A DNA stretch of 64,000 bases from an uncultured Actinomycetes bacterium (GTDB lineage: Bacteria; Actinomycetota; Thermoleophilia; Gaiellales; JAICJC01), in assembly GCA_963723785.1 (NCBI GenBank), contig CAVRSB010000004.1, forward strand, positions 31,662 through 95,661. Reading direction: 5' to 3'. Positions 22,562-63,646 of this stretch are shown piece after piece. The translations under genes were made by a program, and so were the position numbers. The notes under the pieces were generated by a model, which saw only the letters and a list, made by a program, of their open reading frames with translations, was not told the DNA's origin and searched no databases. The first letter of the stretch is position 1. Each line of letters begins with the position of its first letter.

Positions 22562-23440
22562 ATGGGCTCCCAAATACGAGTGGCAGTCATCGGACTAATA
22601 ACGACCTGCGCGTTGTTTTTGGCGATCGCCTCGCCGGCCTCCGCAGCACCACGATTGAAGCATGTGTGGGTGGTCGTTCTCGAGAACCACAGCACCGGCC
22701 AGATCCTGGGGAATCCGCAGGCGCCGTACCTGAACAAGCTGGCCCGCCGAAACGGCCTGGCAACCCGGTACTACAGCCTCGACCATCCCAGTCTTCCAAA
22801 CTACCTTGCGTTGATCTCAGGATCCACGCAGGGGTGCGGATCGGACAGCTGCAAGCCGGGGTACGGCGGCCCGCTCTTGACGCGCCAACTGCGACATCGC
22901 CACCTGGCTTGGCGGGGATATTTCCAGGGACTGCCGCACGCGGGATACATCGGTGGCGACAAAGGCTCGTACGTCCGGCACCACAACCCGTTCGCGTACT
23001 TCAAGTCGATCACCAACTCTCACCACGCCCGGCGAAACATCCGCCCGTTGACGTCACTACGGCGCAGCCTGCGCCATCCGCCGGCGTTCAGCCTCGTGGT
23101 TCCCGACAATCAGCACAACATGCATACCGGCAGCATTGCCAAGTCCGACAAATGGCTCCGCCACTGGATCCCGAAGATCATCCATTCGCGCAAGTTCAGG
23201 CATCAAAGTGCGCTCTTCATCACCTTTGACGAGGGCCACAACGACTCCAGCGGCTGTTGCCTGCGCGGCGTTCACGGGGGCCGCACGGTGCTGATCGCCA
23301 TCACCTCCCACCGGCATCGCTCGAGACTGCATAAACCTCGCACCGCATACTCGCTGCTGCGCACCATCGAGAGCGGATTCCGGCTCAAGCCGATCGCGCA
23401 CGCCTCCCGCGTCCGCCCGCTCAACGCCTTCTGGCGGTGA
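22562..23440 (+). CDS. secreted phosphoesterase family protein (PF04185-like, single domain)
   Basis: ORF 22562..23440. Signal peptide, HVWVVVLENHS...HPSLPNYLALISG...HHNPFAYF. The stop TGA lies inside palindrome copy A. Confidence 0.85.
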   Translation: MGSQIRVAVIGLITTCALFLAIASPASAAPRLKHVWVVVLENHSTGQILGNPQAPYLNKLARRNGLATRYYSLDHPSLPNYLALISGSTQGCGSDSCKPGYGGPLLTRQLRHRHLAWRGYFQGLPHAGYIGGDKGSYVRHHNPFAYFKSITNSHHARRNIRPLTSLRRSLRHPPAFSLVVPDNQHNMHTGSIAKSDKWLRHWIPKIIHSRKFRHQSALFITFDEGHNDSSGCCLRGVHGGRTVLIAITSHRHRSRLHKPRTAYSLLRTIESGFRLKPIAHASRVRPLNAFWR

Positions 23441-23469
23441 ATAATTGGTGCCTGGCACCAATTATTCAC
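23437..23469. repeat. palindromic repeat copy A (33-bp type 1)
   Basis: GTGAATAATTGGTGCC-T-GGCACCAATTATTCAC, perfect 16-bp arms. Confidence 0.95.
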
Positions 23470-23490
23470 CGTACGCCGATCAACGACTGA

Positions 23491-23515
23491 CGCCCTGAGG
23501 CGCGGCCAGCCTCAG
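23491..23515. repeat. secondary hairpin module downstream of copy A
   Basis: CGCCCTGAGGCGC GGCCAGCCTCAG: 7-bp stem CTGAGGC/GCCTCAG with a 7-nt loop. Both halves recur around 51652-51781. Confidence 0.7.
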
Positions 23516-23642
23516 CCGTAACGAGTTCGGGACGGTCCCTCTGACAGACTGAACCATCGACAGGATCCCGACCAATGCCGGTGGATCGATTCAAGGCGGA
23601 CGCCTGGGCGCAGTTGCGTGGGCCGGCCTGGCCGCGACACTG

Positions 23643-24800
23643 GTGTTGAACGCGGGCTCGCTGCTGCTGGGCGTGCTCGATCGCTCCAGCCAGGCGGCGT
23701 TCCCCCAGCTGTTCGAGCTGCTGGTGCTGCTTGCCTACGCCGTCATGGGTGCCGTGGTTGCAAGACGACAGCCGCGAAACCCGATCGGGTGGCTGTATCT
23801 GGCCATCGGATTCGCCACCTCGCTGAACATCTTCGCCGAGCAGTACGCGGTGCGCTCGCTGGTGGCAGATCCCGGCTCATTGCCGTACCCGAAAGCCGCT
23901 CTCTGGCTGGGTTCACCGGCGCTCGACTCGCTCTTCATCCTGGTCGTCACACTGGTGCTGTTGCTGTTTCCCAACGGCCGACCGCTGACACGTCGCTGGC
24001 GATTCGCGGTGTGGATCGCGGTGGCGGGTGCCGCGCTCGGTCTCTCCGAGGCGTTCGTCGATTACCCACTGGAAGCGCCGCTGGCTGGCTACCACAACCC
24101 GCTGTTGGTCACCGGAGCGGCCGGCAGCGTGATCGGCGGCCTCTACCAGATCTCCGGACCGCTCTTGATCGGGAGCTTTTTTGCCGGCATCGCGTGCGTG
24201 GCGCTGCGATTCCGGCGGTCGCGTGGGATCGAACGCCAACAGCTCAAGTGGTTCGCGGCGGCGGTCATGACCGTGCTCGCGGTGATCGTGGTGGTGTTTG
24301 CCGCCTACCAGGCCACCGGCGACGACTACAGCGATGCGATCTTCCTGATCGGCACCTCGATCATCCCGGTTGCCACGGGGCTGGCGATGCTCCGCTACCG
24401 GTTGTACGAGATCGACGTGATCATCCGGCGGACGGTCGTCTACGCCGCGTTGATCGCGGCTCTGGCAGCGCTGTACCTTGGTGGTGTCGCCCTGCTGGGC
24501 TGGATCTTCCGCTCTGTCACCGGTCAGTCCGGGGCGCTTGCGGTGACACTCTCGACACTTTTGGTGGCGGCCGCGTTCCAGCCGCTCCGCTCCCGGATCC
24601 AGCGCACGGTCGATCACCGCTTCTATCGCCGCAAGTACGACGCCGCAGTGACGCTCGACGCCTTCAGCGGTCGCCTCCGCGAGCAGATCGACCTGGACGC
24701 GCTGCAGAGCGAGGTGCTCGGCGTGGTCACAGAGACGCTCCAGCCAAGCCAGGCTTCGCTGTGGCTGCGTACGGTCGAACCGCCGCCGGCGACGCCGTAA
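23643..24800 (+). CDS. polytopic membrane protein resembling the N-terminal sensor module of actinobacterial histidine kinases, no kinase domains
   Basis: ORF 23643..24800, about 8 TM helices, then LRYRLYEIDVIIRRTVVY...RIQRTVDHRFYRRKYD. No H-box or ATPase motifs follow. Confidence 0.6.
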   Translation: MLNAGSLLLGVLDRSSQAAFPQLFELLVLLAYAVMGAVVARRQPRNPIGWLYLAIGFATSLNIFAEQYAVRSLVADPGSLPYPKAALWLGSPALDSLFILVVTLVLLLFPNGRPLTRRWRFAVWIAVAGAALGLSEAFVDYPLEAPLAGYHNPLLVTGAAGSVIGGLYQISGPLLIGSFFAGIACVALRFRRSRGIERQQLKWFAAAVMTVLAVIVVVFAAYQATGDDYSDAIFLIGTSIIPVATGLAMLRYRLYEIDVIIRRTVVYAALIAALAALYLGGVALLGWIFRSVTGQSGALAVTLSTLLVAAAFQPLRSRIQRTVDHRFYRRKYDAAVTLDAFSGRLREQIDLDALQSEVLGVVTETLQPSQASLWLRTVEPPPATP

Positions 24801-24845
24801 GTCCACCGTAATCGCGCCGTAAACGGCGAGGCGCATGATTGCGCC

Positions 24846-25757
24846 ATGAACTCCAAGATCACAGCATTGCTCCTCGGGATCGTGACTCTGGTGGCCATCG
24901 CCGCGGTGGTCGCGGTCGGCATGGGTAGCGCCACGGGGGCGCCGGGGCTGTTCGCGAAGGTCCACGGGTGGATTGCCGTGCGGGGAGTCAAGGGGATCGT
25001 GGCATTCGACCCAGATCACCCCAAGCAGCGGGTGCTGCTCGCACCCAGGTTCGGAGATCCCCTGGCATGGTCACGGGACGGATCGAAGCTGCTGGCGGTC
25101 GCAGGCGATGAGGGCCTGTATGTGCTGCACGGAGACGGCCGCTGGGTTCGAGTCGCCCCGGACGGCTCCACCGGCGGGTCGTTCACACCCGACGGCTCAC
25201 ACGTCGTCTACGAACACAACCACACCATCTACAAGGTGAGCTCCGGCGGAGGTCGGGCCGAGGTCATCGTCAAGCGACCGGCGGGGTCCGGCTTCGGGTT
25301 TCCGGACTTCACGGGGGGACAGCTCTCACCCGACGGAACCGCGATTGTCTACGGCGGACTGAGCCTGATGCGCAGCGACGGCACCCACCGTCGGGCGCTC
25401 GCAACTCCACGGGCGATCGCAGCCCTCACCGGACACCCAGACGCCAACCAGATCGCCGCGCTGGGGTGGTTTCCGGGCAGCAAGCGGATCCTGTTCATCG
25501 CACTCAACCAGAGCACGACCCACTGCGCCCTGCTGACGGTCAATACCGACGGCACGCATCTCCGGCACTGGGGGCCGGCGAGATTCTGCCCGATTCGCGC
25601 CTCATTCTCACCCGATCGTCACCAGGTCGCATTCACGAACTCGCTGTCGCCCCTGATCGTGGCGATCACGCGAACCGACGGCAGCCATCCCCGGACGCTC
25701 AAGAACCTCGGCGTCGTCAACTCCGGGCTCTCACTCGCCTGGAGCGCTGCGGGCTGA
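24846..25757 (+). CDS. membrane-anchored TolB/PD40-like beta-propeller protein
   Basis: ORF 24846..25757. N-terminal TM anchor and repeated S/TxDGS motifs (SRDGSKL, TPDGSHV, SPDGTAI, SPDRHQV, RTDGSHP). Confidence 0.6.
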   Translation: MNSKITALLLGIVTLVAIAAVVAVGMGSATGAPGLFAKVHGWIAVRGVKGIVAFDPDHPKQRVLLAPRFGDPLAWSRDGSKLLAVAGDEGLYVLHGDGRWVRVAPDGSTGGSFTPDGSHVVYEHNHTIYKVSSGGGRAEVIVKRPAGSGFGFPDFTGGQLSPDGTAIVYGGLSLMRSDGTHRRALATPRAIAALTGHPDANQIAALGWFPGSKRILFIALNQSTTHCALLTVNTDGTHLRHWGPARFCPIRASFSPDRHQVAFTNSLSPLIVAITRTDGSHPRTLKNLGVVNSGLSLAWSAAG

Positions 25758-25762
25758 TGCTT

Positions 25763-26465
25763 TCAGCGAACCGGAGCGAGCAGCCGCTCCACCACGCCAA
25801 CCAGACCGTCAAGTGAGGCCAGCTCCGCGTCGGGTTCGACGTCGGCGGGCAGCTCCGCCCCGTTTCGGTTGATCCACACCGCCCGCATCCCCATCGCTTG
25901 CGCACCGCGAATGTCGGTGTCGAGATCGTCGCCCACGTGCACCCACCTGGCCGGGTCGCCGCCCGAGAGCTCCACCGCGTGCAGGAAGGCATCGGCGGCC
26001 GGCTTGGGATCGCCCACACGCTCGGCGTGAACGATGAACGTGAACGTCTCCGCCAGCGGCAGCCGATCGACCGGAAAATTGCCGTTGGTGATCGCCCCCA
26101 GCACGTGCCCGGCCGAGGCCAGCTGCGACAAGGCCGGCTCCACATCGGGATGCAGGACGACACTGGTCACGCGCGCATCCATCCAGGTGGCCACCATCCA
26201 CTCGGGCAGGCCCTCCTCGACCACCCCGTGGTCGGCCGAGCACCCGCCGAAACGACTCCCGCCGGAGGTCTTCGAAGCTGCCGTGCTGCTCAGCCGCCAC
26301 CTGCGCCCGGACGCGGTGAAGCTCCGCCACGTCGATCGCGCCACGGAGATCCGGCCGGCGCTCTTCCAATCCGGCCAGCGTCGCCCGCAGCGCGCCGTCC
26401 ATCATCGGCAAGAACTCCCACAGCGTCTCGTCGAGGTCGAATGACACGACGCTGGTACCGCTCAC
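25763..26465 (-). pseudogene. HAD family hydrolase, frame interrupted once
   Basis: ORFs 25809..26465 (N-terminus, FDLDETLW motif I) and 25763..26344 (C-terminus, GDDLDTDI). Junction near 26235 (extra G in a GG run). Confidence 0.75.
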
Positions 26466-26947
26466 GACCGCCCCAAGAGTGCGACCGCGTGGCAGGCCGC
26501 TCCCTCACCCCGCCCGGCGAAGCCCAGGTGGTCCGTGGTCGACGCCCGCACCGTCACTCGTGTGACCTCCACTCCGAGCACCTCCGCCAGCGCCGATCGC
26601 ATGGCATCGCGGTGAGGGGCGAGTTTGGGAGCCTGCATGATCACGATCGCGTCGACGTTTCGGATCTGCCAACCTTGCCCTGCCAGGGCTGCCCACGCGA
26701 TCCGCAGAAGCTCCAATGACGAGGCGCCCTCCAGCGCCGGATCGTCCGAGGGAAACAGCGCGCCGATATCCTCTCCGCCCGCCGCACCCAGCAGTGCGTC
26801 GGTGACGGCGTGGCACACCAGGTCGGCGTCAGAGTGCCCTGCCAGACCGCGGGCGCCGGGGATCGTAACCCCGGCCAGCACCAATGCACGCCCGTCCGCG
26901 AACGCGTGGGCGTCGAAGCCGATGCCGACACGGAGATCGTCGCTCAC
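26462..26947 (-). CDS. ispF: 2-C-methyl-D-erythritol 2,4-cyclodiphosphate synthase
   Basis: ORF 26462..27019 trimmed to GTG 26947 (GTGA overlap with the ispD stop). GFDAHAF and HSDADL motifs. Confidence 0.9.
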   Translation of the reverse strand: MSDDLRVGIGFDAHAFADGRALVLAGVTIPGARGLAGHSDADLVCHAVTDALLGAAGGEDIGALFPSDDPALEGASSLELLRIAWAALAGQGWQIRNVDAIVIMQAPKLAPHRDAMRSALAEVLGVEVTRVTVRASTTDHLGFAGRGEGAACHAVALLGRS

Positions 26948-27618
26948 GCCAGGGCCTCGGCCAGACGCAGGTCGTCCGGCTCGGTGATCTTGAGATTCGT
27001 CCGTTCGCCCGGTACCCACACAACTCGCATGCCCGCATTCTCGAGCAGGGACGAGCAGTCGGTGGCGGCGTGCAGCTCCGCCAGAGGTCGATCGTAGGCT
27101 CGCCGCAGGCAGTCGGCCCGAAATCCCTGGGGCGTCTGCACTGCGACCAGACCGTCACGCTCGAGCGTGGAGGCGATCGCCTCGCCGGCGGTGCGCTTGA
27201 TCGTGTCGGCCACCGGCAGGGCGGGCACGGCTCCGTCCGCATCGGTGAGTGCCGCCAGCACGCGCGTGACCAGATCGTGCGAGGCCAGGGGGCGCGCGGC
27301 ATCGTGCACCAGGATCAGATCAGCCGTGTCGGGCAGCTCCGCCAGACCGGCTGCCACCGATTCGGCCCGGGTGGCACCGCCTGCGATCACACTTGCGACC
27401 TTGCCCGCCACCATCTGATCGGCCAGCAGCTGGGCCGGGTCCTCCCACCCCGCCGGCACCACCAAGACCATCCGGTGGACGTCGTCGTGGTCCTCGATCA
27501 GGGTAATTGCGCGTTTCAGTAACACGTCACCCTGGAAACCGACGAACGCCTTGGGCCGGTCGGCACCAAACCGCTTGCCCTCTCCCGCCGCCACGACGAT
27601 CGCCCACGTCTGCGCCAA
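26944..27618 (-). CDS. ispD: 2-C-methyl-D-erythritol 4-phosphate cytidylyltransferase
   Basis: ORF 26944..27618 (TTG start). AAGEGKRFG, VHDAARP motifs. Confidence 0.9.
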   Translation of the reverse strand: MAQTWAIVVAAGEGKRFGADRPKAFVGFQGDVLLKRAITLIEDHDDVHRMVLVVPAGWEDPAQLLADQMVAGKVASVIAGGATRAESVAAGLAELPDTADLILVHDAARPLASHDLVTRVLAALTDADGAVPALPVADTIKRTAGEAIASTLERDGLVAVQTPQGFRADCLRRAYDRPLAELHAATDCSSLLENAGMRVVWVPGERTNLKITEPDDLRLAEALA

Positions 27619-28668
27619 CTACGACTCCGTCATGCGCGTGAAGATCATCTTGCCCGACGGCGACTGCAGCACCGAGGTGACCTGCACCGAGACGCTCGAT
27701 CCGACCTGGGAGCGACCGCCTTCGACAACCACCATGGTGCCGTCGTCCAGATAGCCGACGCCCTGGTCGGCCTCCTTGCCTTCACGGATCAGCCGCACCG
27801 TGAACTGCTCGCCCGGGAGCACCGCCGGTTTGAGCGCGTTTGCCAGCTCGTTCACGTTCAGGATCTCGACGTCCTGGATCCGCGCCAGGCGGTTCAGGTT
27901 GTAGTCGGTGGTGAGGATCCGAAGGCTGCGCTGCTTGGCCAGCTTGAGCAGCTTGGAGTCGACCTCGGGGATGTCGGGGAAGTCGACGTCGGGTACCGAG
28001 ACGGTGACCTCGCCGCGCAGCCCCTGCACCACTTCCAGGCCGCGGCGGCCACGGTTGCGCTTCAGCGGGTCAGCCGAGTCGGCCACCTGCTGCAGCTCCT
28101 TGAGCACGAACTCCGGCACCACCAGCTCGCCAGACAGGAATCCGGTCTTGACGATGTCAGCGATCCGTCCGTCGATGATCGCGGAGGTGTCGACCAGCGT
28201 GGCGGAGTCGCGGTTGGCGGCGTCCATCTCGGGCTCACCCACCGAATGGACGCCCACCAGCCGGAGGATGCCGCGATGTTTTTTGGCGCCCACCACCGCA
28301 AACGCGTACCCCAGGATCAGGAACAGCGGAAGCAGCACCCAGTCGCCGATGTACGGCAGCGAGTGCACGGGGAAGTACAGCAGCACAGCCACCAGCAGGC
28401 CCACCAGCAGGCCGACCGCGGCCACCGTGAGCTCACCCGCACTGCGAGATTGGACTGCGCGTTCAAGTCGCTTGAAGGAGCGCTGTAATCCCTTCCCGAC
28501 CAATCCGCCAACCATCCAGCCAACGGCGAAGATCAGGAGAATGATGATGCCAGCGGCGACGTACGCGTAAGAAGCCGAAAAATGATCTCGAAGCCTGGAA
28601 TACAGGCCCGCCTGTATGGCACCCAGCACAGCCAAGAGCGAGAGAACGACTCGGGATACCACCACCAT
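27619..28668 (-). CDS. PIN/TRAM domain-containing membrane protein (YacL-like)
   Basis: ORF 27619..28668. N-terminal TM helices, PIN-like core (LVDTSAIIDGRI), C-terminal TRAM-like beta domain. Conserved position upstream of ispD. Confidence 0.75.
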   Translation of the reverse strand: MVVVSRVVLSLLAVLGAIQAGLYSRLRDHFSASYAYVAAGIIILLIFAVGWMVGGLVGKGLQRSFKRLERAVQSRSAGELTVAAVGLLVGLLVAVLLYFPVHSLPYIGDWVLLPLFLILGYAFAVVGAKKHRGILRLVGVHSVGEPEMDAANRDSATLVDTSAIIDGRIADIVKTGFLSGELVVPEFVLKELQQVADSADPLKRNRGRRGLEVVQGLRGEVTVSVPDVDFPDIPEVDSKLLKLAKQRSLRILTTDYNLNRLARIQDVEILNVNELANALKPAVLPGEQFTVRLIREGKEADQGVGYLDDGTMVVVEGGRSQVGSSVSVQVTSVLQSPSGKMIFTRMTES

Positions 28669-28754
28669 CGTCTGTTCACTCCTCTGATGTGTTCTCTATG
28701 TCAACGTGTCGGTTGGGCTATCGGCCTCCGACCGCGACTCCTTGAAGGTATCGG

Positions 28755-29267: not shown

Positions 29268-29346
29268 ATAACCCTTCCATTGGTGCCGTGAAAAGACCCG
29301 TGCGAGCGCTTGTAGAACCGCGACCCAACAGGCGCCCAGAGTGAAC

Positions 29347-31272: not shown

Positions 31273-32600
31273 CAGAACGCTCCATCGATGGCGGCGCCGA
31301 CCGTGTCCGCGGTTACCAGCTTGAGCCGAGACGCCGCAGGTGTCTCGGTCGGCACGACCAGTTCGGTGACGCCAAACTTGCGCGCCTCCTGCAGGCGCGG
31401 CCCGACATGTCCGACCGCCCGCACTCGACCGGTGAGACCGAGCTCGCCGAACGCGGCCAGCCGGGGACGCAGCGCACGCCCGCGCAGGGCTGACACGATC
31501 GCCAGCGCGACCGCCAGGTCGGCTGCGGGCTCGTCGATGCGAACGCCGCCGGCCACGTTCACAAAGATGTCGCTCGACCCCAGGGGCACTCCGGCGTGGC
31601 GTCCGAGCACCGCCACGATCATGGACAGTCGGTTGCGGTCAAACCCGGTGGCCGCCCGCCGCGGCATCGCCAGGTCGGAGTCGGCCACCAGCGCCTGCAC
31701 CTCCAGCAGGATCGGGCGGGTGCCCTCGATCGCAGGCAGCAGTACCGAGCCGGGCGCTGGCTCGCCGTCGCCGGCGAACGCCGACGAGGGGTCGTCCACC
31801 GGCTCCAAGCCCAGGCCGGTCATCTCGAAGATGCCGATCTCGTTGGTCGATCCAAACCGGTTCTTGACGGCCCGCAGCACTCGCAGGAAGCGGTAGCGAT
31901 CACCCTCGAACTGCAGCACCGCGTCCACCAGATGCTCGAGCACGCGCGGCCCGGCGACGTTGCCGTCCTTGGTCACGTGCCCGACCAGGATGATGGTGAC
32001 CCCATGGCTCTTGGCCACTCGGGCAAGCCGGTCGGCGGCCTCCCGCACCTGGCCGACACTGCCGGGCGAGGAGCTCAGATCTGCGGAGTGCATCGTCTGC
32101 ACCGAGTCAACCACGCACACCTGGGGCGCGGTGGCCACGATCGCCTCACATACCGACTCGAGCTCTGTCTCGGCCAGGATCGAGATCCCGTCGATCGCTC
32201 CCAGCCGCTCGGCCCGCAGCCGCACCTGGGCGGGCGACTCTTCACCGGCCACCAGCAGCACAGGCCTGCCCGCGGCCGCGATCCGCCCGAGCGACTGCAG
32301 GAGCAGCGAACTCTTGCCCACGCCGGGCTCACCCCCGATCAGCACCAGCGACCCCGGCACCAGACCGCCGCCCAGCACCCGATCGAACTCCTCCAGGCCG
32401 GTCGAGATGCGGTCGGAATCGGTCAGCGCGACATCAGACAGGGCCCTGACCGGCCGCCCCACCGGTGCCCGCCGAGACGTGGAGCGCTCGCGCACCTCCT
32501 CGACCAGCGTGTTCCATTCGCCGCAGCCGGAGCATTGGCCCAGCCACTTGGGCGACTCGTGGCCACACTGGCTGCAGGTGAATATGGTGAGCGTCTTGGG
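31272..32600 (-). CDS. radA: DNA repair protein RadA
   Basis: ORF 31272..32648, likely GTG start at 32600. Zinc ribbon CSQCG...CSGCGEW, Walker A GEPGVGKSSL, KNRFG, Lon-like C-domain. Confidence 0.9.
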   Translation of the reverse strand, partial: PKTLTIFTCSQCGHESPKWLGQCSGCGEWNTLVEEVRERSTSRRAPVGRPVRALSDVALTDSDRISTGLEEFDRVLGGGLVPGSLVLIGGEPGVGKSSLLLQSLGRIAAAGRPVLLVAGEESPAQVRLRAERLGAIDGISILAETELESVCEAIVATAPQVCVVDSVQTMHSADLSSSPGSVGQVREAADRLARVAKSHGVTIILVGHVTKDGNVAGPRVLEHLVDAVLQFEGDRYRFLRVLRAVKNRFGSTNEIGIFEMTGLGLEPVDDPSSAFAGDGEPAPGSVLLPAIEGTRPILLEVQALVADSDLAMPRRAATGFDRNRLSMIVAVLGRHAGVPLGSSDIFVNVAGGVRIDEPAADLAVALAIVSALRGRALRPRLAAFGELGLTGRVRAVGHVGPRLQEARKFGVTELVVPTETPAASRLKLVTADTVGAAIDGAF

Positions 32601-32646: not shown

Positions 32647-32679
32647 ATGAATAATTGGTGCCTGGCACCAATTCTTCAC
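32647..32679. repeat. palindromic repeat copy B (33-bp type 1, 2 mismatches)
   Basis: ATGAATAATTGGTGCC-T-GGCACCAATTCTTCAC. Confidence 0.9.
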
Positions 32680-32692
32680 TCCGGCCGCCCCG

Positions 32693-32723
32693 GTGAATAC
32701 CGGTGCCTGGCACCGTTATTCAC
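32693..32723. repeat. palindromic repeat copy C (31-bp type 2, 1 mismatch)
   Basis: GTGAATACCGGTGCC-T-GGCACCGTTATTCAC, 13 nt downstream of copy B. Confidence 0.9.
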
Positions 32724-33565: not shown

Positions 33566-33577
33566 GTGGCAATCATC

Positions 33578-33603
33578 GCACCCCGGCGCGAACGCCGGGG
33601 TGC
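33578..33603 (-). terminator. GC-rich hairpin downstream of clpC
   Basis: GCACCCCGGCG-CGAA-CGCCGGGGTGC: perfect 11-bp stem with a 4-nt loop, 10 nt after the clpC stop. Only a weak U-rich tail. Confidence 0.45.
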
Positions 33604-33613
33604 GAATGCCAAA

Positions 33614-39389: not shown

Positions 39390-40459
39390 ATGAACCCGCT
39401 GACCGAGAACTGGTACATCAGGGATGTCGAGATTCCGTCCCGGATCGTGCTGGCGCCGATGGCGGGTGTCTCGGTGCAGGCGTTCCGCCGCCAGGGGCGT
39501 CGATTCGGGGCCGGGCTGGTGTGCTCGGAGATGGTTTCGTCGTGCGGGCTGTCCTACGGCAACGAGCGCACTCTGGGGTACCTGCGGATCGCCCGGGACG
39601 AGCATCCGCTGGCCGTCCAGATCTTTGGCTCCGAGCCCGAGCGGATGGCCGAGGCGGCCGAGATGGTGGTCGCGGCGGGCGCCGACATCGTCGACATCAA
39701 CTTCGGCTGCCCGGTTCGCAAGGTGACCAAGACCGGGGCCGGCGCCAGCGCGCTCGAGCAGCACGACCTCGCCTGCTCGCTTGGCCCGGGCGGTGGTGGA
39801 CGCGGTCGACGTGCCGGTGACGGTGAAGATGCGCCGCGGACTCGAGAACGGCTCGCGCACGGCTCTCGACCTGGGGCCCAAGCTCGAGGCCGAGGGGGTC
39901 GCGGCGCTGACGCTGCACCCGCGCTCGGCCAAGCAGATGTACACCGGCACCGCCGACCACACGCTCACGGCCGAGCTGGTCGAGCGCGTGTCGATTCCCG
40001 TGATCGCCTCGGGCGACATCACCGACCGCGCCCGGGCGCAGGTGGTGCTGGAGTCGACCGGCGCCGACGCGGTCATGGTCGGCCGCGGCGCGCAGGGGCG
40101 GCCGTGGGCGCTGAGCGAGATGGCCGGCGGCGAGTCGGCCGAGCCCGATCGCGCCGAGCTCTACGCCGAGCTGGTGCGGTTCATGCGCGAGGTGGTGCGG
40201 GAGATGGGCGACGAGCGCTCGGTCGGATTCCTGCGCAAGTTTTACGGCTGGTACCTGCGCGGTACCGAGGGCGCCCGCGCGGTGCGCGGCGAGCTGATGC
40301 TGTGCCAGACGGTGGACGCCGCCGAGCAGGTGCTGCTGAATGCCTGCCCCGAGGCCCGTGAGCTGCTGATCGCCCACGCGGCCGAGATCGACCTGCTGCC
40401 CGACCTCCGAGTCCGATCGCCTGCTCGACCTGCCGATCTCGATCTACGGCGGCGGGTGA
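39390..40459 (+). pseudogene. dus: tRNA-dihydrouridine synthase, frame interrupted twice
   Basis: ORFs 39390..40361 and 39781..41019. LAPMAGVS, DINFGCP, HPRS motifs. Junctions near 39775 and 40408. The high-GC3 tail (SESDRLLDLPISIYGGG) ends at TGA 40457-40459 inside palindrome copy D. Confidence 0.85.
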
Positions 40460-40487
40460 ATAACGGTGCCTGGCACCATTTATTCAC
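40456..40487. repeat. palindromic repeat copy D (32 bp; type 2 left arm, irregular right arm)
   Basis: GTGAATAACGGTGCC-T-GGCACCATTTATTCAC, between convergent dus and the GNAT gene. Confidence 0.9.
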
Positions 40488-40998
40488 CCCGACGACCTGG
40501 AGCCATTCCGGCTTGAGGCCGGGATTGACCTCGATTCGCATGCCGAGCTTGCGCATGACGCTGATCGAGGCCGAGGTTGGCGTGCTCGGTGGTGGCCACG
40601 ATCCGGGCCAGCTGCAGGTGGTCGAAGCCGAAGGCGATCAGCGCCGCAGCCGCCTCGGTGGCGTAACCCTGGCCGCGCTCGGCGGGCGCCGTTGCCCAGT
40701 ACAGACCGACCTCTGGGCGAAACCGGTGGGGATCGCTGCCGTCGCCGAGGCCGGGGATCAGCCCGAACGGCGCCAGGCACGGCACCAGCCCGACCAGTCC
40801 GACCAGCTCCCCATCGCTTTGGCGCTCCACGGCCCGTTCGCCGTAGGGCGGCTGGTTCAGATCCGCGAGCTGGGCGTATCCCGCCACGGTCCACTCGAGC
40901 CACTGGTCACGCCGCTCTCCCAGCACCCGCTGGACGCCCGCTGCATCACCGCCGGTCAGTGGACGCACCAGGAGACGTTCAGTCTCGAGCAACGGCAT
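40484..40998 (-). pseudogene. GNAT family N-acetyltransferase (RimJ/RimL-like), frame interrupted
   Basis: ORF 40480..40998 (N-terminus) continued in the frame of ORF 40242..40556 (ASISVMRKLGMRIEVNPGLKPEWLQVVG). As given the ORF stops at TAA 40480-40482. The corrected frame would stop at TGA 40484-40486. Both lie in the right arm of copy D. Confidence 0.75.
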
Positions 40999-41011
40999 CG
41001 CGCGATGATAG

Positions 41012-41042
41012 GTGAATAACGGTGCCCGGCACCGTTATTCAC
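41012..41042. repeat. palindromic repeat copy E (31-bp type 2, centre C)
   Basis: GTGAATAACGGTGCC-C-GGCACCGTTATTCAC, between the divergent GNAT and PhyH genes. Confidence 0.95.
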
Positions 41043-43838: not shown

Positions 43839-43869
43839 GTGAATAACGGTGCCTGGCACCGTTATTCAC
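43839..43869. repeat. palindromic repeat copy F (31-bp type 2, perfect)
   Basis: GTGAATAACGGTGCC-T-GGCACCGTTATTCAC. Confidence 0.95.
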
Positions 43870-43885: not shown

Positions 43886-43918
43886 GTGAATAATTGGTGC
43901 CTGGCACCAATTATTCAC
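43886..43918. repeat. palindromic repeat copy G (33-bp type 1, perfect)
   Basis: GTGAATAATTGGTGCC-T-GGCACCAATTATTCAC, 16 nt downstream of copy F. Confidence 0.95.
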
Positions 43919-44575
43919 GCCATAGCTACCTGGTGGAGGGCCGCTGCGGCTTCAGCCCGGGTGCGGGCGTTGAGCTTGCGCAGGATCGCCTTCACGTGCC
44001 AGCGCACGGTCTCGGGCGACAGGTACAGCTCGGCCGCGATCTGCCCGGTGGTGTAGCCACTGGCGATCAGCCGCAGGATCTCGAGCTGGCGGGGCGTCAG
44101 CTTCTCGCGCTGCTGCGGCCGTGGAGCCAGCTCCAGGCGCTGCTCCGCGCCGCGCACCTCGTCAAGCAGGTAGGACACCATCCGGCGTGACACCGCCGCT
44201 TCGCCACCGACCACGCCCAGCGATCGCTTCGGCCAGCCGGTCGGGCGTCTGATCCTTGGTCAGGTAGCCCACCGCGCCGGCGCGCACCGCCGCCAGCATC
44301 ACCTGTGGGTCGTGCGACTCCGACAGCATCACGACCTTGACGCCTGCGCCGACGGCGTCCAGCAACCGCCGGGTGGCAAGGATGCCGCTGCCGTCCTTCA
44401 GCTCCAGATCCATCAGCACCACATCGGGACGCAGGCGCACACCCCGCTCGATCGTCTCCAGCACACTCGAAGCGGTACCCACGACCTCCATGCCGGCGCC
44501 CTCGAGCAGCGTGATCAGCCCCCGTCGAAAGAGCGGGTGATCGTCAACAACAACAATCCGGATGGGAGCCCCCAT
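43915..44575 (-). pseudogene. NarL/FixJ (LuxR) family response regulator, frame interrupted once
   Basis: ORF 44162..44575 (receiver: VVVDDHPLFR, VVLMDLELKDGSG) plus ORF 43915..44214 (LuxR HTH: LTPRQLEILRLIASGYTTGQIAAELYLSPETVRWHV). Junction near 44215. The stop TGA lies inside palindrome copy G. Confidence 0.85.
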
Positions 44576-51588: not shown

Positions 51589-51621
51589 GTGAATAATTGG
51601 TGCCTGGCACCAATTATTCAC
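51589..51621. repeat. palindromic repeat copy H (33-bp type 1, perfect)
   Basis: Identical to copies A and G. Lies in the 211-nt gap between the hydrolase gene and the 51018 gene. Confidence 0.95.
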
Positions 51622-51651: not shown

Positions 51652-51781
51652 CGCCCTGAGGCGCAGGCCGTTGGGTCTGTGGCAAGGATCGAGCCGCGAG
51701 CGGAGCGCAGGCGTGGCAAAGCCACGGCGAGCACCGCACGCGGCGTGGGACGCCGCCACAGACCCAACGGGCCAGCCTCAG
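51652..51781. repeat. secondary hairpin module downstream of copy H, carrying a nested insertion
   Basis: CGCCCTGAGGCGC (51652-51664) and GGCCAGCCTCAG (51770-51781) match the copy-A module but are separated by about 105 nt that form a long extended stem. Confidence 0.7.
51670..51768. repeat. 99-bp MITE-like or hairpin insertion bounded by 14-bp perfect inverted repeats
   Basis: GTTGGGTCTGTGGC (51670-51683) and GCCACAGACCCAAC (51755-51768), flanked by GGCC on both sides. The interior holds a smaller hairpin, CGTGGC-AAA-GCCACG. Confidence 0.6.
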
Positions 51782-58411: not shown

Positions 58412-58412
58412 C

Positions 58413-59972
58413 GTGCTCCGCGACGACCTCACATCGATCAAGCGCCTGCGCGGATTCCTCCAGGTCACCCGGCTGGTGCGCGGCGAGGAAGAGCTGTCGC
58501 TGCTGCTGGACGAGATGGCCGCGGCCATCTCCGACGCGCTCGGGTTTCGCCTGGTGGTGGTGCACATGTACCGGCCGGCCTGGGACGACTTCGAAGCCAC
58601 CACGGTGCACGGCGACGAGCAGGCACGGGCTGCGCAGCTGGAGCAGACCAACGGGTGGGAGCGGTGGTCGCCGCTTCTGGACGACCGGTTCCTCCGCGGT
58701 GGGGCGTATTTCGTGCCCCGCGGCCGCACCGACGTAGCCGACCTGCCCTCGATCAGCTCCACCGAGGACCCCAACACCTGGCATCCCGACGATCAGCTGA
58801 TCGTGCCCCTGCGCCACTCCCAGGGTCAGCTGGTGGGCATCCTGTCCGTGCACGAGCCGGTGTCGGGACGAGTACCCGGCGGCGACGAACTGGACATCCT
58901 GTCGGCCATGGCCGAACACGCCGCGCTGGCAATCCAGGGGGCCCAGGAGACTGCGGCCGCCGCCCGCCATCGCACCGCGCTGGAACAGCTGCTGACGGTG
59001 TCGTCCAAGCTCACCGAGACGTTTGCGATCGACGCCATCCTGCAGGCGGTGTGCGACGGCATCCATACGTCGCTGGGCTTCGAGAACGTCTGCATCGACC
59101 TGCCCGACCCCGAGACCGGGGCGTATCGCACCCGCGCCGCCCACGGCTGGAATGTCGACGACGCGGCCGTCAACCTGCCGATGCAGCCGGCCGAGCTGCG
59201 GCCGTTGATGGCCGCGCGCTTCGAGGTGGAGGGCTGCCACCTGATCGATCATGTGACTGCCGAGGAGCTGATCGGCGACCACCACGTCACCTATCACTCG
59301 GAGCTGCGCGGACACGGCCCCCACGCCTGGGACGATCACTGGCTGTTCGTGGTGTTGTGGTCGCGCAGCGGCGAGGTGATCGGTGTGATCTGGGTGGACG
59401 ATCCCCGCGACCGGCTGCTGCCGTCGGCGCGCAAGCTGCAGGCCCTGCGAGTGTTCGCCAACCAGGCCACCACCGCCCTGGATGCCGCCGCCCAGTACGA
59501 GGAGATGCAGTTTCTGGCGGAGCATGACCCGCTCACACGGCTCTTGAACCGGCGCGCGTTCGACGCCGAGCTGGACGCCGAGATGGCCCGGGCGGTGCGC
59601 TACGAGCACCCGCTGGCGCTGCTTTTGTGCGACCTCAACGGGTTCAAGCAGCTCAACGACGATCACGGTCACGCCGCGGGCGACCTCGCGCTGGAGCGAG
59701 TCGGAGCGGCGCTGCAGGCCACCGTCCGCACGGTCGATTCCGCGTTTCGCATCGGCGGCGACGAGTTTGCCGTGCTGCTGCCCCAAACCGACCGGGCCGA
59801 GGCGCTGGCGGTGATCGACCGGATCTCCGAAGCACTGCAGCACGATCTCGAGATCGGCAGCGTGACGGCCACCTTCGGGCTGGCCGTGTATCCCGAGGAC
59901 GGCGGCGACCCGCACCGGCTGGTACGCACCGCCGATGCCGCCATGTACGCGGCCAAACCCGCTCGCGGATAG
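58413..59972 (+). CDS. GAF-GAF-GGDEF diguanylate cyclase (tandem paralog)
   Basis: ORF 58389..59972 trimmed to GTG 58413, 1 nt after the preceding stop. Same architecture; RIGGDEF with I-site RTVD. Confidence 0.9.
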   Translation: MLRDDLTSIKRLRGFLQVTRLVRGEEELSLLLDEMAAAISDALGFRLVVVHMYRPAWDDFEATTVHGDEQARAAQLEQTNGWERWSPLLDDRFLRGGAYFVPRGRTDVADLPSISSTEDPNTWHPDDQLIVPLRHSQGQLVGILSVHEPVSGRVPGGDELDILSAMAEHAALAIQGAQETAAAARHRTALEQLLTVSSKLTETFAIDAILQAVCDGIHTSLGFENVCIDLPDPETGAYRTRAAHGWNVDDAAVNLPMQPAELRPLMAARFEVEGCHLIDHVTAEELIGDHHVTYHSELRGHGPHAWDDHWLFVVLWSRSGEVIGVIWVDDPRDRLLPSARKLQALRVFANQATTALDAAAQYEEMQFLAEHDPLTRLLNRRAFDAELDAEMARAVRYEHPLALLLCDLNGFKQLNDDHGHAAGDLALERVGAALQATVRTVDSAFRIGGDEFAVLLPQTDRAEALAVIDRISEALQHDLEIGSVTATFGLAVYPEDGGDPHRLVRTADAAMYAAKPARG

Positions 59973-60013
59973 GATCCCACGGCAATCCGACCGCTTCGAG
60001 GGGAGCCGCTCAG

Positions 60014-61174
60014 GTGGACTTCGATCTCACCGACGAGCAACGCGCGATCCAAGAGACTGTGCGCGAGTTCGTCGACCGCCGGGTGTTACCGGTGGCACAG
60101 GAAAACGACATCAATCATCACCTCGATATGGGCATCATCGAGGGCATGGCCGAGTTGGGCCTTCTGGGAGCGCCAATCCCGACCGAGTACGGCGGCGCCG
60201 GGCTCGACTTCGTGTGCGAGGCGCTGATCTGCGAGGAGATCGAGCGGGGCGAGTCGGCCTTCCGCACGCTGATCTCGGTGCATGTCGGCTTGAACTCGCT
60301 GTCGCTTTTGAAGTTCGGGTCTGAGGAGCAGAAGCAGAAGTACCTGGTGCCGATGGCCAAGGGCGAGAAGCTCGGCTGTTTTGGCCTGACCGAGCCGGCC
60401 GCCGGATCCGACGTGGCGGCGATGCTGACCAACGCGATCCGCCAGCCGGACGGCACCTACGTGCTCAACGGACAGAAGAACTGGATCTCGTACGCGACCG
60501 AGGCCGACTACGAGCTGGTGTTTGCAAAGACCGATCCCAGCGCCGCCCACAAGGGCATCTCGGCATTCATCGTGGAGCGCGAGTGGAAGGGCGTCGAGGC
60601 CCGCCAGATCCCGAACAAGCTGGGCATCTGGGCAGGGTCGACCGGCGAGCTGTTCTTCTCCGACGTGCACATCCCCGCCGAGAACCGGGTGGGCGAGGAG
60701 GGCGAGGGCTTCAAGATCGCGATGAACTCACTCGACCAGGGCCGCTTCACCGTCGCAGCCGGCGCGGTCGGCGTGATCCGCGCGTGCCTGGAGGCGTCGG
60801 TCAAGTACGCCAACGAGCGCAGCACCTTCGGCCAGGAGATCGGCAAGTACCAGTTCGTGCAGGACATGATCGCCGACATGGTGCTTGGCTATGAGACCTC
60901 GCGGCTCTTGGTGATGCAGGCCGCCGCCGCCAAGGACAAGGGCGTTCGCAACACCCGCGAGACGTCGCTGGCCAAGTGGCACGCCACCGAGAGCGCGTTC
61001 GACGCCGCCAACAAGGCCATCCAGGTGCACGGCGCCTACGGCTACTCGGCCGAGTACCCGGTGGAGCGCTACTTCAGAAACAGCCGCGCGCCGATCATCT
61101 ACGAAGGCACCACCCAGATCCACAAGATGATGCAGGCAGAGCACGCACTCGGATATCGCAAGCTCAATGGCTGA
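60014..61174 (+). CDS. acyl-CoA dehydrogenase
   Basis: ORF 59627..61174 trimmed to GTG 60014 behind GAGGGGAG. GCFGLTEPAAGSD, QIHGAYGY-type C-terminus, catalytic YEGT. Confidence 0.9.
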   Translation: MDFDLTDEQRAIQETVREFVDRRVLPVAQENDINHHLDMGIIEGMAELGLLGAPIPTEYGGAGLDFVCEALICEEIERGESAFRTLISVHVGLNSLSLLKFGSEEQKQKYLVPMAKGEKLGCFGLTEPAAGSDVAAMLTNAIRQPDGTYVLNGQKNWISYATEADYELVFAKTDPSAAHKGISAFIVEREWKGVEARQIPNKLGIWAGSTGELFFSDVHIPAENRVGEEGEGFKIAMNSLDQGRFTVAAGAVGVIRACLEASVKYANERSTFGQEIGKYQFVQDMIADMVLGYETSRLLVMQAAAAKDKGVRNTRETSLAKWHATESAFDAANKAIQVHGAYGYSAEYPVERYFRNSRAPIIYEGTTQIHKMMQAEHALGYRKLNG

Positions 61175-62055
61175 TCAGCGGCTGGTGGAACTGGACGACG
61201 GCGGCGTGCTGAGCGTCGTCGAGCTGGGAAGCGGGCATCCGCTGGTGCTGCTGCACGGCGGTCCCGGCCTCGATCACCAGGAGTTCCGGCCGTGGCTGGA
61301 TCCGCTGGCCGAGCAGGGCCTGCGGCTGATCATGGTGGATCAGCGCGGCCAGGGTGCGTCCCCTCGGGTCGACCCGGCCGAGTTGACGATCTCGAAGCTG
61401 GCCCAGGACATCGACCGGCTGGCGCGGGCGCTGCAGCTCGACGATTACGCGGTGCTGGGCCACTCGTTCGGTGCCGTGGTCGCGCTCTAGCCATGCGCTC
61501 GAGCGGGGCACCGCCTCGCAGTATGTGATCTCGTCAGGGGCGGCGTCCAGCGAGGCGCTGGTGGCCGACATCGAGCGCGAGCTGGGCCGGTTCGAGCCGG
61601 CCTCCATGCGCGATCAGATCAAGCGCAGCTTCGAGGCGGAGGCAACGCTCACCACCGTCGAGCAGGCCCGGGCCGTTTCAGAGGCGCAGATGCCGTTCCA
61701 CTTCTGGGAGCTGGGCGATGCCTACAGCGCGTTCGTGCAGGCCGACAAGACGCTGTACGCCCCCGAGGTGCTGGCCCACTTCGCCGCCAACGGCTACGGC
61801 GCGTTCGAGTGGGTCGATCACCTGCGCTGGATCCGAAAGCCGATGCTGGTGATCGCCGGCCGGTACGACCGCACCTGCACGCTGGCGCGGTCACAGGAGA
61901 TCCACGCCGAGGTCGAGGGCTCCGAGCTGGTGGTGATCGAGAAGGCCGCCCACATGACCTATGTGGAGCAGCCCAAGGCATATCTGAGCGCGGTGCGCTC
62001 CTGGTTCATCAGCCAGGGCGTGTTGCCGGATCCAACGCTTCCGACTGCGGCCTGA
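61167..62055 (+). pseudogene. alpha/beta hydrolase (proline iminopeptidase-like), frame interrupted once
   Basis: ORF 61167..61490 (LLHGGPG, GHSFG) plus ORF 61471..62055. Junction near 61485. The start overlaps the acyl-CoA dehydrogenase stop. Confidence 0.75.
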
Positions 62056-62863
62056 GGCTCGGGTGGAGATGATCGAGCGCCGGTAGCGACGCCCGGATCT
62101 GGGCGAGCCGCTCGAAATCCAGGTCGGCAGTGATCACGCCGTCGCCGTCGGGCGACTGTGCCAGCACCGTGCCCCACGGGTCGATGATCATGCTGTGGCC
62201 GTAGGACGGCTTGTTGCGACCGCCCGGGAAGCCGTGCTGGCCGGTGGCGAGCACGTAGGCCTGGTTTTCGATCGCGCGCGCCCGCAGCAGCACCTCCCAG
62301 TGGGCCATGCCGGTGTGCAGCGTGAAGTTGGACGGCACCGTCAGCACGGTGGCGCCGCCGCCCAGGGTGAGCAGCCGGTAGAGCTCGGGGAAACGCAGGT
62401 CGTAGCAGACGGTCAGCCCGTAGCGGACGCCCTCGATATCGACCACCACCGGGTCTGATCCGGGCTCGGTGCCGTCCGACTCGCGGTAGCTGTGGCCGCC
62501 CACATCGACGTCGAACAGATGGATCTTGGTGTAGCTGCCGATCCGGTTGCCGTCGCGGTCGTACACGATCTCGACATTGCCGACGCGCTCGCCGGCTTCG
62601 ATCGCGATCGAGCCGCCGATCAGGTTGACGCGATGCTCGCGGGCCCACCCCGCCATCGCCTCGACCGTCTCGCCGGAGTCGATCCGCTCGGCTTCGCGGC
62701 GCATGCCCTCGCCGTCCACCCAGGCGTTCCACTTCTCCGGCAAGAGGATCACGTCGGCGCCGCGGCCGGCGGCCTCGGCCACCAGCGGCGCCATGTCGCG
62801 CACGCTGTCGCTCTTCTCGGGGCGGGCGGCAAACTGGATGCAGGCGGCGCGGACGATGGTCAT
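62009..62863 (-). CDS. carbon-nitrogen hydrolase (nitrilase superfamily) protein
   Basis: ORF 62009..62863. Glu-Lys-Cys triad context (LLPEKW, YTKIHLFD, VCYDLRFPE). Confidence 0.85.
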   Translation of the reverse strand: MTIVRAACIQFAARPEKSDSVRDMAPLVAEAAGRGADVILLPEKWNAWVDGEGMRREAERIDSGETVEAMAGWAREHRVNLIGGSIAIEAGERVGNVEIVYDRDGNRIGSYTKIHLFDVDVGGHSYRESDGTEPGSDPVVVDIEGVRYGLTVCYDLRFPELYRLLTLGGGATVLTVPSNFTLHTGMAHWEVLLRARAIENQAYVLATGQHGFPGGRNKPSYGHSMIIDPWGTVLAQSPDGDGVITADLDFERLAQIRASLPALDHLHPSLRPQSEALDPATRPG

Positions 62864-62872
62864 GGTGGAAGC

Positions 62873-63608
62873 CTAGTCCGGTTCGCTCTTCTTGGTCGAT
62901 GACTGCCGCGAAGGCGATGGCACAGGCCACGAACAGGATCGCGGCCTGCTCGAGTGCCATCGTGATCGCCCCCACCTCCTGGTCACGCAGGGCCGAGAAG
63001 CCCCACAGCTTGGGGGTGTCCAGGTAGAAGTGGTAGATCGGCGACTGGGCCAGTGCGAGCACCAGTGACAGCGGTGAGGCGGCGAAGAAGGCGATCAGCA
63101 GGTATCCCAGCCGGGCCGGCGGCCGCATCCGCCCGGGCGACAGCACCGCCCACCAGAACACCAGCCCGGCGAGCACGAAGATCACGTGCTCGACACCCAG
63201 CGCCCAGTGGTGTCGCAGGGCGTAGTCGTAGAACGCGGGGACGTGCAGGCCGTACCAGGCGGCCAGCCAGAAGACCAGCGCGAACACGGGGTTGGTGGCG
63301 GCCCGCACCACGGTGTGACGCTCGGCCATCGCGAACATCGCAGGAGTCAGCCCCAGCACCAGAAGCGGCGGCGCCCAGTCGGCGATGACCACGTTTTGGA
63401 GCAGGTGGAAGCTGACCATCGACGTCAGCGCGAGATGCTCGATCGGGGAGAGCAGGGCAACTGCGATCAGCCCCAGTCCGGCGGCGAAGGCGGCAATCCG
63501 ATACCACGGGGTGGGCTCGCCGCGGCGGCCCAGCGCCCGCACCACCAGCCCGTAGTCGACCGCCACGATCGCGATCGCGAGCATCCACTCCCAGTCGAAC
63601 ACGAACAC
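62873..63608 (-). pseudogene. cytochrome c oxidase assembly factor CtaG-like membrane protein; 3' end restored by one indel correction
   Basis: N-terminal about 245 aa of ORF 61959..63608 are polytopic (7 TM). The rest of that ORF overlaps the nitrilase gene in another frame and is Arg-rich nonsense. One base removed near 62885 gives stop TAG 62873-62875. Confidence 0.6.
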
Positions 63609-63614
63609 CCACGG

Positions 63615-63646
63615 GTGAATAAACGGTGCCTGGCACCGTTATTCAC
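63615..63646. repeat. palindromic repeat copy I (32 bp, type 2 with one extra A in the left arm)
   Basis: GTGAATAAACGGTGCC-T-GGCACCGTTATTCAC, between the ctaG-like start and the clpS stop. Confidence 0.9.

Follow-up and report, generated by a model that had tools for sequence, protein, structure and literature searches.

Published repetitive extragenic palindromes (REPs) lie in convergent or unidirectional spacers between genes, and the ends of the repeats supply stop codons (PMC3733652). Each gene for a REP-associated tyrosine transposase (RAYT, also TnpA-REP) has its own REP family, and the substrate is the lagging-strand template (PMC6006769). In a related group, TIRYT, RAYT-like genes are flanked by inverted repeats that share the sequence GGGGWSAS and are without GTAG; some of these repeats are complementary to themselves throughout and make up dispersed families of moderate abundance, in dimers, such as the S. 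maltophilia ORF 1152 type (Di Nocera et al. 2013, PMC3733652). Members of TnpA-REP subclass 2.1 have a C-terminal helix-turn-helix (HTH), and no REP-like sequences were found near their genes (Quentin et al. 2018, PMC6006769). Mycobacterium has a sequence-conserved, two-way palindromic hairpin, TRIT (tuberculosis Rho-independent terminator), with ~150 copies at a narrow position, about -8, in the coding end (Gardner et al. 2011, PMC3152330). Here, we describe nine short palindromes in a stretch of 64,000 nucleotides (the window) from an uncultured Actinomycetes bacterium (GCA_963723785.1, contig CAVRSB010000004.1), and the dispersed family to which they belong.

We put the probability at about 85% that these palindromes are the short, non-autonomous hairpin repeats of a REP-RAYT system in an uncultured actinobacterial lineage; the system appears to be TIRYT-like, with an HTH-bearing enzyme. 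An earlier note, made from the sequence of the window, had called the pattern REP-like, or similar to bacterial interspersed mosaic elements (BIMEs). This description has been borne out: the copies are dispersed, lie at gene 3' ends, form short-plus-long pairs, turn over between genomes and flank a RAYT-like gene in relatives.

Results

Nine palindromes at gene ends

The window holds nine palindromes of 31-33 bp with the form GTGAATAA-linker-GGTGCC-W-GGCACC-linker-TTATTCAC, centred at 23453, 32663, 32708, 40471, 41027, 43854, 43902, 51605 and 63631; all nine were found where the earlier note had placed them. The long class (33 bp) is GTGAATAA-TT-GGTGCC-T-GGCACC-AA-TTATTCAC, and the short class (31 bp) is GTGAATAA-C-GGTGCC-T-GGCACC-G-TTATTCAC, which an outer G...C pair often extends to 33 bp. 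Hybrids of 32 bp are found at 40456 and 63615, and the arms of the copies at 32647 and 32693 have one or two mismatches. Three copies (23437, 43886 and 51589) are identical 33-mers, as the note had also recorded. The copies are listed below; L-numbers, here and throughout (L002, L068, L096 and so on), denote sequence blocks or loci from related genomes.

23437..23469, no strand: REP copy 1, long TT/AA class, perfect over 33 bp, centre T; its TGA (23438-23440) is the stop codon of a phosphoesterase-family gene (22655-23440, plus strand)
32647..32679, no strand: REP copy 2, long, two arm mismatches (ATGAATAATTGGTGCC T GGCACCAATTCTTCAC); pairs with copy 3 in the rpiR-radA spacer
32693..32723, no strand: REP copy 3, short, one mismatch, 13 nt from copy 2; its start is the final base of the rpiR stop codon TAG (minus strand)
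40456..40487, no strand: REP copy 4, 32-bp hybrid, left arm with the short-class C, right arm with AT; holds the TGA stop (40480-40482, minus strand) of the GNAT gene (40480-40998)
41012..41042, no strand: REP copy 5, short, centre C (T in the ortholog L099); in the divergent spacer between GNAT (minus) and PhyH (plus), the sole window copy so placed
43839..43869, no strand: REP copy 6, short, perfect; first of a BIME-like pair in a convergent spacer
43886..43918, no strand: REP copy 7, long, perfect, 16 nt from copy 6; holds the stop (43915-43917, minus strand) of a LuxR-family gene (43915-44214)
51589..51621, no strand: REP copy 8, long TT/AA class, perfect
63615..63646, no strand: REP copy 9, 32 bp, left linker AC, right linker G; holds the clpS stop at 63643-63645 (clpS 63643-63948, minus strand)

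The 16-nt arm, with at most two mismatches, has 10 matches in the window against 0.16 expected, and the 13-nt core GGTGCCNGGCACC has 9 against 0.78; neither count was ever attained in shuffled sequence. A profile search of the window with nhmmer revealed no further copy, even decayed. The first 23 kb are empty by both pattern and profile, in agreement with the note; this has a probability of ~0.04 under a uniform rate, and few suitable spacers lie there. All nine copies are between genes or at a gene end, again as claimed, and five overlap a stop codon (phosphoesterase, rpiR by 1 nt, GNAT, LuxR and clpS).

Two features of the copies are recorded as side observations. The palindrome centre (for example 23451-23455) reads CCWGG, a Dcm/EcoRII-type site, with GGYRCC on either side; and the GNAT gene (40480-40998) is bracketed by copies 4 and 5 (40456-41042).

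A dispersed family in related genomes

We scanned public genomes, one per species, with the exact pattern, retrieved 8-kb blocks around matches, and then collected copies in these blocks and the window (0.9 Mb in all). At least 105 blocks in species-representative genomes contain the motif; among the matches listed, all come from nine related uncultured actinobacterial metagenome-assembled genomes (MAGs), which belong to one Danish soil survey. The family is therefore dispersed over related genomes rather than limited to the window, an outcome the earlier note had left to a genome-wide search. Motif-bearing public MAGs are deposited as 'uncultured Actinomycetes bacterium', and the named best matches of the window rpiR product are labelled Gaiellales. 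The collection comprises 163 copies, with at least 55, 44, 27 and 20 in the sampled blocks of four MAGs.

Perfect palindromes make up 130 of the 156 odd-length copies, and linkers are symmetric in 150 copies and asymmetric in 6, even though the search pattern left the linkers free. Six linker types occur (C/G, TT/AA, AA/TT, AT/AT, CC/GG and TC/GA). The centre base is A or T in 155 of 163 copies. Arm pairing reaches just 2-4 nt past the element, the flanks are without conservation, and we detected no target-site duplication beyond chance. Nor did we find a single half-site in the 0.9 Mb: all 332 arm matches are inside full or decayed palindromes.

More distant genomes carry sister families with compensated changes. 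The core is GGGGCC/GGCCCC in one of these families, and the arms are GTGAGTGG/CCACTCAC or GTGACTAA/TTAGTCAC in others. One sister family is asymmetric, GTGAATAAGAGGGGTCAGTCGCCTTCTATTCAC, and makes inverted doublets. At L109 10883-11025 and 17197-17294 and at L004 6798-6830, the TGAATAA...TTATTCA arms are kept around an asymmetric core containing GGGGTCAG, in inverted doublets resembling REPINs (REP doublets forming hairpins).

Against Rfam, the window gave no match at gathering thresholds, and the surroundings of copy 8 gave none at E <= 1. The earlier note had not recognised the sequence family. The motif is unmatched in viral contigs, and we rejected a phage repeat; the copies are thus not the ends of an annotated phage or insertion sequence (IS), the origin that the note had thought would overturn its view. 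Clustering of proteins encoded near copies, in search of a recurrent neighbour gene, returned only housekeeping families.

A RAYT-like gene flanked by the palindromes

A scan of all six frames for HxH...YxxNP returned one open reading frame (ORF), L096 3554-4201. Its product matches Pfam Y1_Tnp above the curated cut-off (E 5e-9), its best NCBIfam match is REP_Tyr_transpos, the REP-associated tyrosine transposase (E 1e-16), and a C-terminal HTH is indicated by matches to Sigma70_r4, HTH_23 and HTH_28. We found 42 homologs of the protein, some of them named RayT by JGI, and the RAYT-like proteins are Y1/HUH proteins of 206-251 amino acids. The HUH histidines do not vary, nor does the tyrosine of RYIALNP, and all line up with their counterparts in E. 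coli RayT. When an AlphaFold model of the RAYT-like protein (predicted local distance difference test score, pLDDT, 94.6) was compared by fold with the PDB, 4ER8, the complex of RayT with a REP hairpin, ranked first, ahead of the TnpA proteins of ISDra2, IS608 and IS200.

The L096 gene has two short-variant copies upstream and one copy over its TAA stop. Together with eight further loci, we examined nine transposase loci representing eight distinct lineages (L115 and L116 encode the same protein). Family palindromes flank the RAYT-like gene in 8 of 8 lineages; a palindrome overlaps or abuts the transposase stop codon in 7 of 8, and palindromes are present on both sides in 6 of 8. At 5 of the 6 loci with copies on both sides, these are inverted, with centre A upstream and centre T downstream. 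Upstream copies lie 70-170 nt ahead of the transposase start. Inverted palindromes around a transposase gene are the defining REP-RAYT arrangement. The flanking variants are as follows.

L096, L113: C/G
L112: TT/AA
L117: AA/TT
L114: GTGACTAA arms
L115/L116: GATGAATCA arms
L118: degenerate copies
L119: GGGGCC core

The linker or arm variant tracks the protein lineage. L096, L112 and L113 are the same locus, which in L112 and L113 lies between the aconitase/LeuD and DUF8230 genes. Each of two MAGs has two transposase paralogs, whose flanking variants differ; the paralogs at L112 and L117, from the same MAG, are 58% identical.

Position relative to genes and stop codons

Of the copies, 80 are in convergent, 57 in tandem and 9 in divergent spacers, and 3 are inside genes. 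Among the spacers of the same blocks, 47% of the convergent ones contain a copy, compared with 9% of the tandem and 7% of the divergent ones. Copies in tandem spacers lie a median of 4.5 nt from the preceding stop codon and 89 nt from the following start. On 100 of the 230 sides that face a gene end (43%), the stop codon is inside the element, and on a further 45 it is within 12 nt. The stop is supplied either as TGA by positions 2-4 of GTGAATAA or as TAA by positions 6-8. Whichever strand is read, this arm offers TGA and TAA in two of the three frames, so that a copy inserted among the final codons of a gene would still end the protein. Judging from these positions, copies would persist where they are harmless, at the very end of genes.

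The centre base is polarised by strand

The centre is the only asymmetric position of the palindrome. Centre A is on the locally G-rich strand in 85 of the 115 copies that could be scored by local GC skew (~74%; Fisher p 1e-6). The bias persists within convergent spacers (24:7 versus 8:26), where transcription is symmetric. All seven A/T-centred window copies are concordant with it, and long single-orientation runs extend along contigs. The bias opposes the general A/T skew of the window, which makes a simple mutational equilibrium unlikely. With the G-rich strand as lagging-strand template, the bias is as predicted by single-strand transposition of the IS200/IS605 type (PMC6006769); an alternative is that the CTG-loop hairpin, the more stable one, is selectively lost from that strand.

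The centre-A strand of the window family reads GGTGCCAG, which is near the published GGGGWSAS of RAYT-like flanking repeats, and would be the one that is active. Homology with E. coli RayT and with the TnpA proteins of IS608 and ISDra2 suggests that the enzyme would bind the hairpin formed by one strand of the palindrome in single-stranded DNA, mainly on the lagging-strand template at the fork, and would cut and rejoin at the hairpin, spreading or maintaining copies. Recognition and cleavage of the hairpin in single-stranded DNA are thus proposed here from homology.

Turnover at orthologous sites

Several of the blocks align with the window as orthologs, with DNA identities of 86-95%. Orthologous intergenic regions, whose comparison the earlier note had suggested, differ both by presence or absence of copies and by replacement of one subtype with another, so that fixation does not hold for every orthologous position. 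L107 and L108 have an empty rpiR-radA spacer, which is filled in the window and L076 and occupied by a different, related family in L109. In a genome with 81% RpiR identity, the empty spacer is 36 nt (...TAC TAG CCTCACC...); the window junction reads ...TAC TAG TGAATAACGG..., the short copy starting at the last base of the stop; and a genome at 77% identity has sister-family copies there. At site 8, TT/AA in the window is replaced by AA/TT in the ortholog L036. Site 6-7 has two copies in the window and one, of the long variant, in the ortholog L099, and the clpS site (copy 9) has a perfect short variant in the ortholog L052. A 303-amino-acid ORF of the window (24846-25757, no Pfam match) is absent in the close relative L068, where the site consists of a short REP and a remnant of the ORF 3' end. 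Several orthologous copies are kept while their flanks diverge. For L104, intended as a distant empty-site comparison, synteny stops before the copies.

A unique GC-rich hairpin (33576-33605, TCGCACCCCGGCGCGAACGCCGGGGTGCGA) lies between clpC and rpiR and is conserved in L076, L107, L108 and L109. In contrast to the REP copies, it looks like an ordinary, vertically inherited terminator.

Pairs and a second hairpin repeat

We identified 21 close pairs of palindromes. Sixteen of these have a spacing of 13-16 nt, each with one short and one long variant, and they resemble E. coli BIMEs, which combine two REP types. The spacer inside pairs is weakly conserved (CACYGACGCYC...), and the centre bases have the same orientation in 16 of the 21.

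A second repeat family accompanies the palindromes, with two representatives in the window.

51655..51781, plus strand: full copy, a ~127-bp imperfect hairpin with ends CCTGAGGCGCAG...CCAGCCTCAG
23494..23515, plus strand: short derivative, ends only (CCTGAGGCGC/GGCCAGCCTCAG), 25 nt past copy 1

The full copy lies between copy 8, 34 nt away, and an alpha/beta hydrolase gene whose TGA stop it supplies; it is missing from the ortholog L036. Likewise, 47 bp around the short derivative are missing from the ortholog L068. The ~127-bp repeat also occurs at L076 1742-1869 and in L002, L047, L054, L064, L073, L087 and L091. It is 13-37 nt from a palindrome in 10 of 10 full copies, the window included, and for 13 of 18 matches to its left end. 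At two sites it is present in one genome and absent in the other, and both times it supplies the TGA of the neighbouring gene. In its alignment, compensatory changes occur at 13 pairs, and several G-U pairs are fixed on one strand; there was no Rfam match to this repeat. It may be a miniature inverted-repeat transposable element, or a REPIN-like element, that targets the REP or was built onto it.

Gene content of the window

The window has a base composition of 62-71% GC (host genome ~68%) and is a housekeeping stretch of an actinobacterial chromosome. Pfam identified radA, an rpiR-family regulator, clpC, dus, GNAT, PhyH, coaX, a LuxR-type gene, an alpha/beta hydrolase, ctaG and clpS. The genes lsr2, lysS, panD, the fol genes, ftsH, hpt and tilS were assigned by ORF size and order only; the order radA - clpC - lsr2 - lysS - coaX - panD - fol genes - ftsH - hpt - tilS is one that we take to match Mycobacterium.

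ARAGORN called a 91-nt tRNA-Thr(GGT) at 32291-32381 (minus strand) within radA; being 91 nt long and inside a conserved ORF, it was judged a probable false positive. The dus gene is apparently split over two frames (39390-40361; 39781 onward), the second of which is open through REP copy 4 and across the antisense strand of GNAT; this is possibly a frameshift error of the long-read assembly. The PhyH-dus region varies among relatives, L109 being without GNAT and without copies, and L108 having four extra genes.

Folding and alternative explanations

As RNA, the palindromes fold into a hairpin of 15-16 bp (about -25 to -30 kcal/mol) with a GC-rich top and an A/U-rich base; 61-nt segments reach -29 to -31 kcal/mol, with z of -4.4 to -6.7. 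The tail after the GC-rich inner stem is UUAUUCAC or AUUUAUUCAC, and just one copy passes a simple terminator scan. When transcribed, the element would probably form a two-way barrier at mRNA 3' ends, as a terminator or as a shield against 3' exonucleases, a role that has been suggested for the REPs of E. coli and the TRITs of mycobacteria.

These properties raise the possibility that the palindromes are simply conserved, two-way transcription terminators or RNA 3'-end structures of the TRIT kind, and that RAYT-like genes carry copies as any gene end can. The copies are at stop codons, mostly in convergent spacers; the strong hairpin has a GC-rich top and a base rich in A and U that recalls an A-tract/U-tract; the window shows no enrichment of canonical intrinsic terminators, with 6 against an expected 5.4; several orthologous copies are conserved beside diverged flanks; and TRITs are likewise palindromic and two-way, centred ~-8 from the stop (PMC3152330). 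Nevertheless, we consider this explanation unlikely. Selection for a hairpin alone fails to explain an identical sequence at hundreds of unrelated loci. It also leaves unexplained the replacement of TT/AA by AA/TT at one site, the empty and filled orthologous spacers, and the palindromes on both sides of a Y1 gene in 6 of 8 lineages, with lineage-specific variants; and a copy 70-170 nt ahead of the transposase start is in no terminator position for the transposase gene. Moreover, since TRIT predictions in M. tuberculosis coincide with only 2-4% of mapped termination sites (bioRxiv 10.1101/2022.06.01.494293), a role as terminator or mRNA stabiliser, suggested here by position and folding, is not to be assumed. 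Such a role is compatible with a REP-RAYT system, as a secondary function at the level of the host.

A second explanation is that the palindromes are double-stranded sites for a dimeric protein (a global regulator, a nucleoid protein or the RAYT-like HTH), that is, operators or chromosome-organising sites. The perfect dyad, each half-site of which has two invariant blocks (GTGAATAA and GGTGCC), and the C-terminal HTH of the partner protein would suit this, and gyrase and IHF bind E. coli REP/BIMEs (PMC3733652). Divergent spacers, which would contain promoters, hold only 9 of 146 placed copies, however, and copies overlap coding ends and turn over between close relatives. The spacing between the blocks varies by 1 bp per arm, symmetrically (150 versus 6), which argues for base pairing between the arms and not for contacts with a duplex. 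On the strength of the position classes and the symmetric linker variation, we rejected the operator reading; sites of this general kind are very improbable.

That the palindromes are DNA uptake signal sequences in inverted pairs, like the pairs in Neisseria that double as terminators, is scarcely credible: natural competence is not known from this lineage, the link to a Y1 transposase accounts for the pattern more simply, and uptake sequences also occur singly and within genes, whereas 332 of 332 arm matches here are in full or decayed palindromes, so that we rejected this reading. The motif is abundant, lineage-specific and at gene ends, and a proposal of this type has been raised for terminator-like palindromes (PMC3993855).

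Discussion

We conclude that the palindromes most probably belong to a REP-RAYT system. This is a new example of an element type that is already known, in a host whose relatives are labelled Gaiellales. Its unusual traits are the full symmetry, the paralog-specific linkers, the replication-polarised centre base, the routine supply of stop codons and the actinobacterial host.

Several points weigh against this conclusion. The earlier note had recognised no RAYT-like gene in the window, and profile hidden Markov models find no RAYT or Y1 transposase gene there; a RAYT search, which the note had proposed for the genome itself, did yield a gene flanked by the same palindrome in close relatives. 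The relatives in which the partnership is seen are therefore 90-95% identical in DNA or more distant, and for the genome of the window a partner gene is predicted. Among the 105 blocks selected by the pattern (0.84 Mb), just one carried such a gene. The NCBIfam score of its product, 61 bits, is below the equivalog cut-off of 80. Kinship with E. coli RayT is remote, because pairwise BLASTP with that protein is not significant and a PDB sequence search misses it; phmmer with E. coli RayT against the six-frame ORFs of the window and the 105 blocks also gave no match. The unpaired GT[AG]G head (or CGTC tag) of classical, imperfect REPs is absent, the element starting with GTGA that is paired with TCAC at the other end. 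The perfect symmetry could instead be maintained by template-switch correction of quasi-palindromes, not by recent copying. Absolute frequencies are biased, the blocks having been picked for containing the motif; gene positions come from a codon-usage gene caller made for this analysis and are approximate; and the strand bias was scored by GC skew of 8-kb blocks, not from mapped replication origins. Finally, transposition, cleavage and transcript ends at the copies are predicted events.

A broader joint reading is possible, although we regard it as doubtful. HTH-bearing RAYT-like enzymes might lie behind a large family of fully symmetric REPs, in a Gram-positive lineage of high GC content, with the 1-2 nt linker as a specificity code that matches paralogs (C/G, TT/AA and AA/TT) in one cell to their own repeats, and the centre base as a mark of the active strand, polarised by replication. 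The host might rely on the copies as its main gene-end hairpins, a suggestion prompted by the scarcity of canonical terminators. If this were so, the mycobacterial TRIT might share an origin with the palindromes.

REP-RAYT systems have so far been studied almost only in Proteobacteria; here, the same partnership would be present in abundant, uncultured soil actinobacteria, and in an unusually clean form, with perfect palindromes that have one asymmetric base, linkers specific to paralogs and a routine supply of stops. How a Y1 enzyme distinguishes its own hairpin from a near-identical one thereby becomes testable, as do a tie between insertion and the lagging-strand template, and the replacement of intrinsic terminators by repeats in high-GC bacteria. 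In practical terms, the repeats will confuse the calling of gene ends and the polishing of long-read assemblies in such MAGs, and masking is advised.

Comparison with known systems

The closest parallels are the E. coli REP/BIME-RayT and Pseudomonas REPIN-RAYT systems. These share with the system described here hairpin repeats of 20-40 nt that are high in copy number and extragenic, lying after genes in convergent or co-directional spacers; ends able to supply stops; fixed, short-spaced pairs of two sequence types; and a Y1/HUH gene, here probably low in copy number, flanked by inverted copies of its own repeat, with a fold match to 4ER8. The repeats themselves differ. Here they are symmetric and mostly perfect with one unpaired centre base, whereas the E. 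coli and Pseudomonas REPs are imperfect palindromes with an unpaired GTAG head; the outer arms here are AT-rich in a genome of ~68% GC; and pairs are mostly in the same orientation (16 of 21), whereas REPINs are inverted. The protein differs from E. coli RayT in its added C-terminal HTH and shows no pairwise BLAST similarity to it. The host is an actinobacterium, and Actinobacteria are unmentioned in the REP surveys cited here.

With TIRtrons/TIRYT, the family shares inverted flanking repeats that are without GTAG, self-complementary and dispersed. The published GGGGWSAS can be set against the cores found here: GGGGTCAG (L109) fits, GGGGCCAG occurs in L119 and L080, and GGTGCCAG of the window family has two departures. 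The C-terminal HTH is shared with TnpA-REP subclass 2.1, a likeness by description and not by placement in a tree; unlike in that subclass, the flanking repeat here is a large dispersed family.

TRIT is likewise a conserved actinobacterial palindrome with a narrow position relative to the stop codon, compared here by description and not by sequence. The stop codon ends at element position +4 (TGA) or +8 (TAA) in the present family, and TRIT is centred at ~-8. TRIT is reported only in Mycobacterium and without a transposase partner (PMC3152330). Lastly, the IS200/IS605 elements IS608 and ISDra2 have in common with the system described here the catalytic fold, the HUH and tyrosine motifs, a replication-linked orientation bias and, by homology, the probable recognition of hairpins in single-stranded DNA. 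In contrast to those elements, there is here no IS-like unit and no TnpB, and it is the hairpin of 31-33 nt that has multiplied and apparently not the transposase gene.

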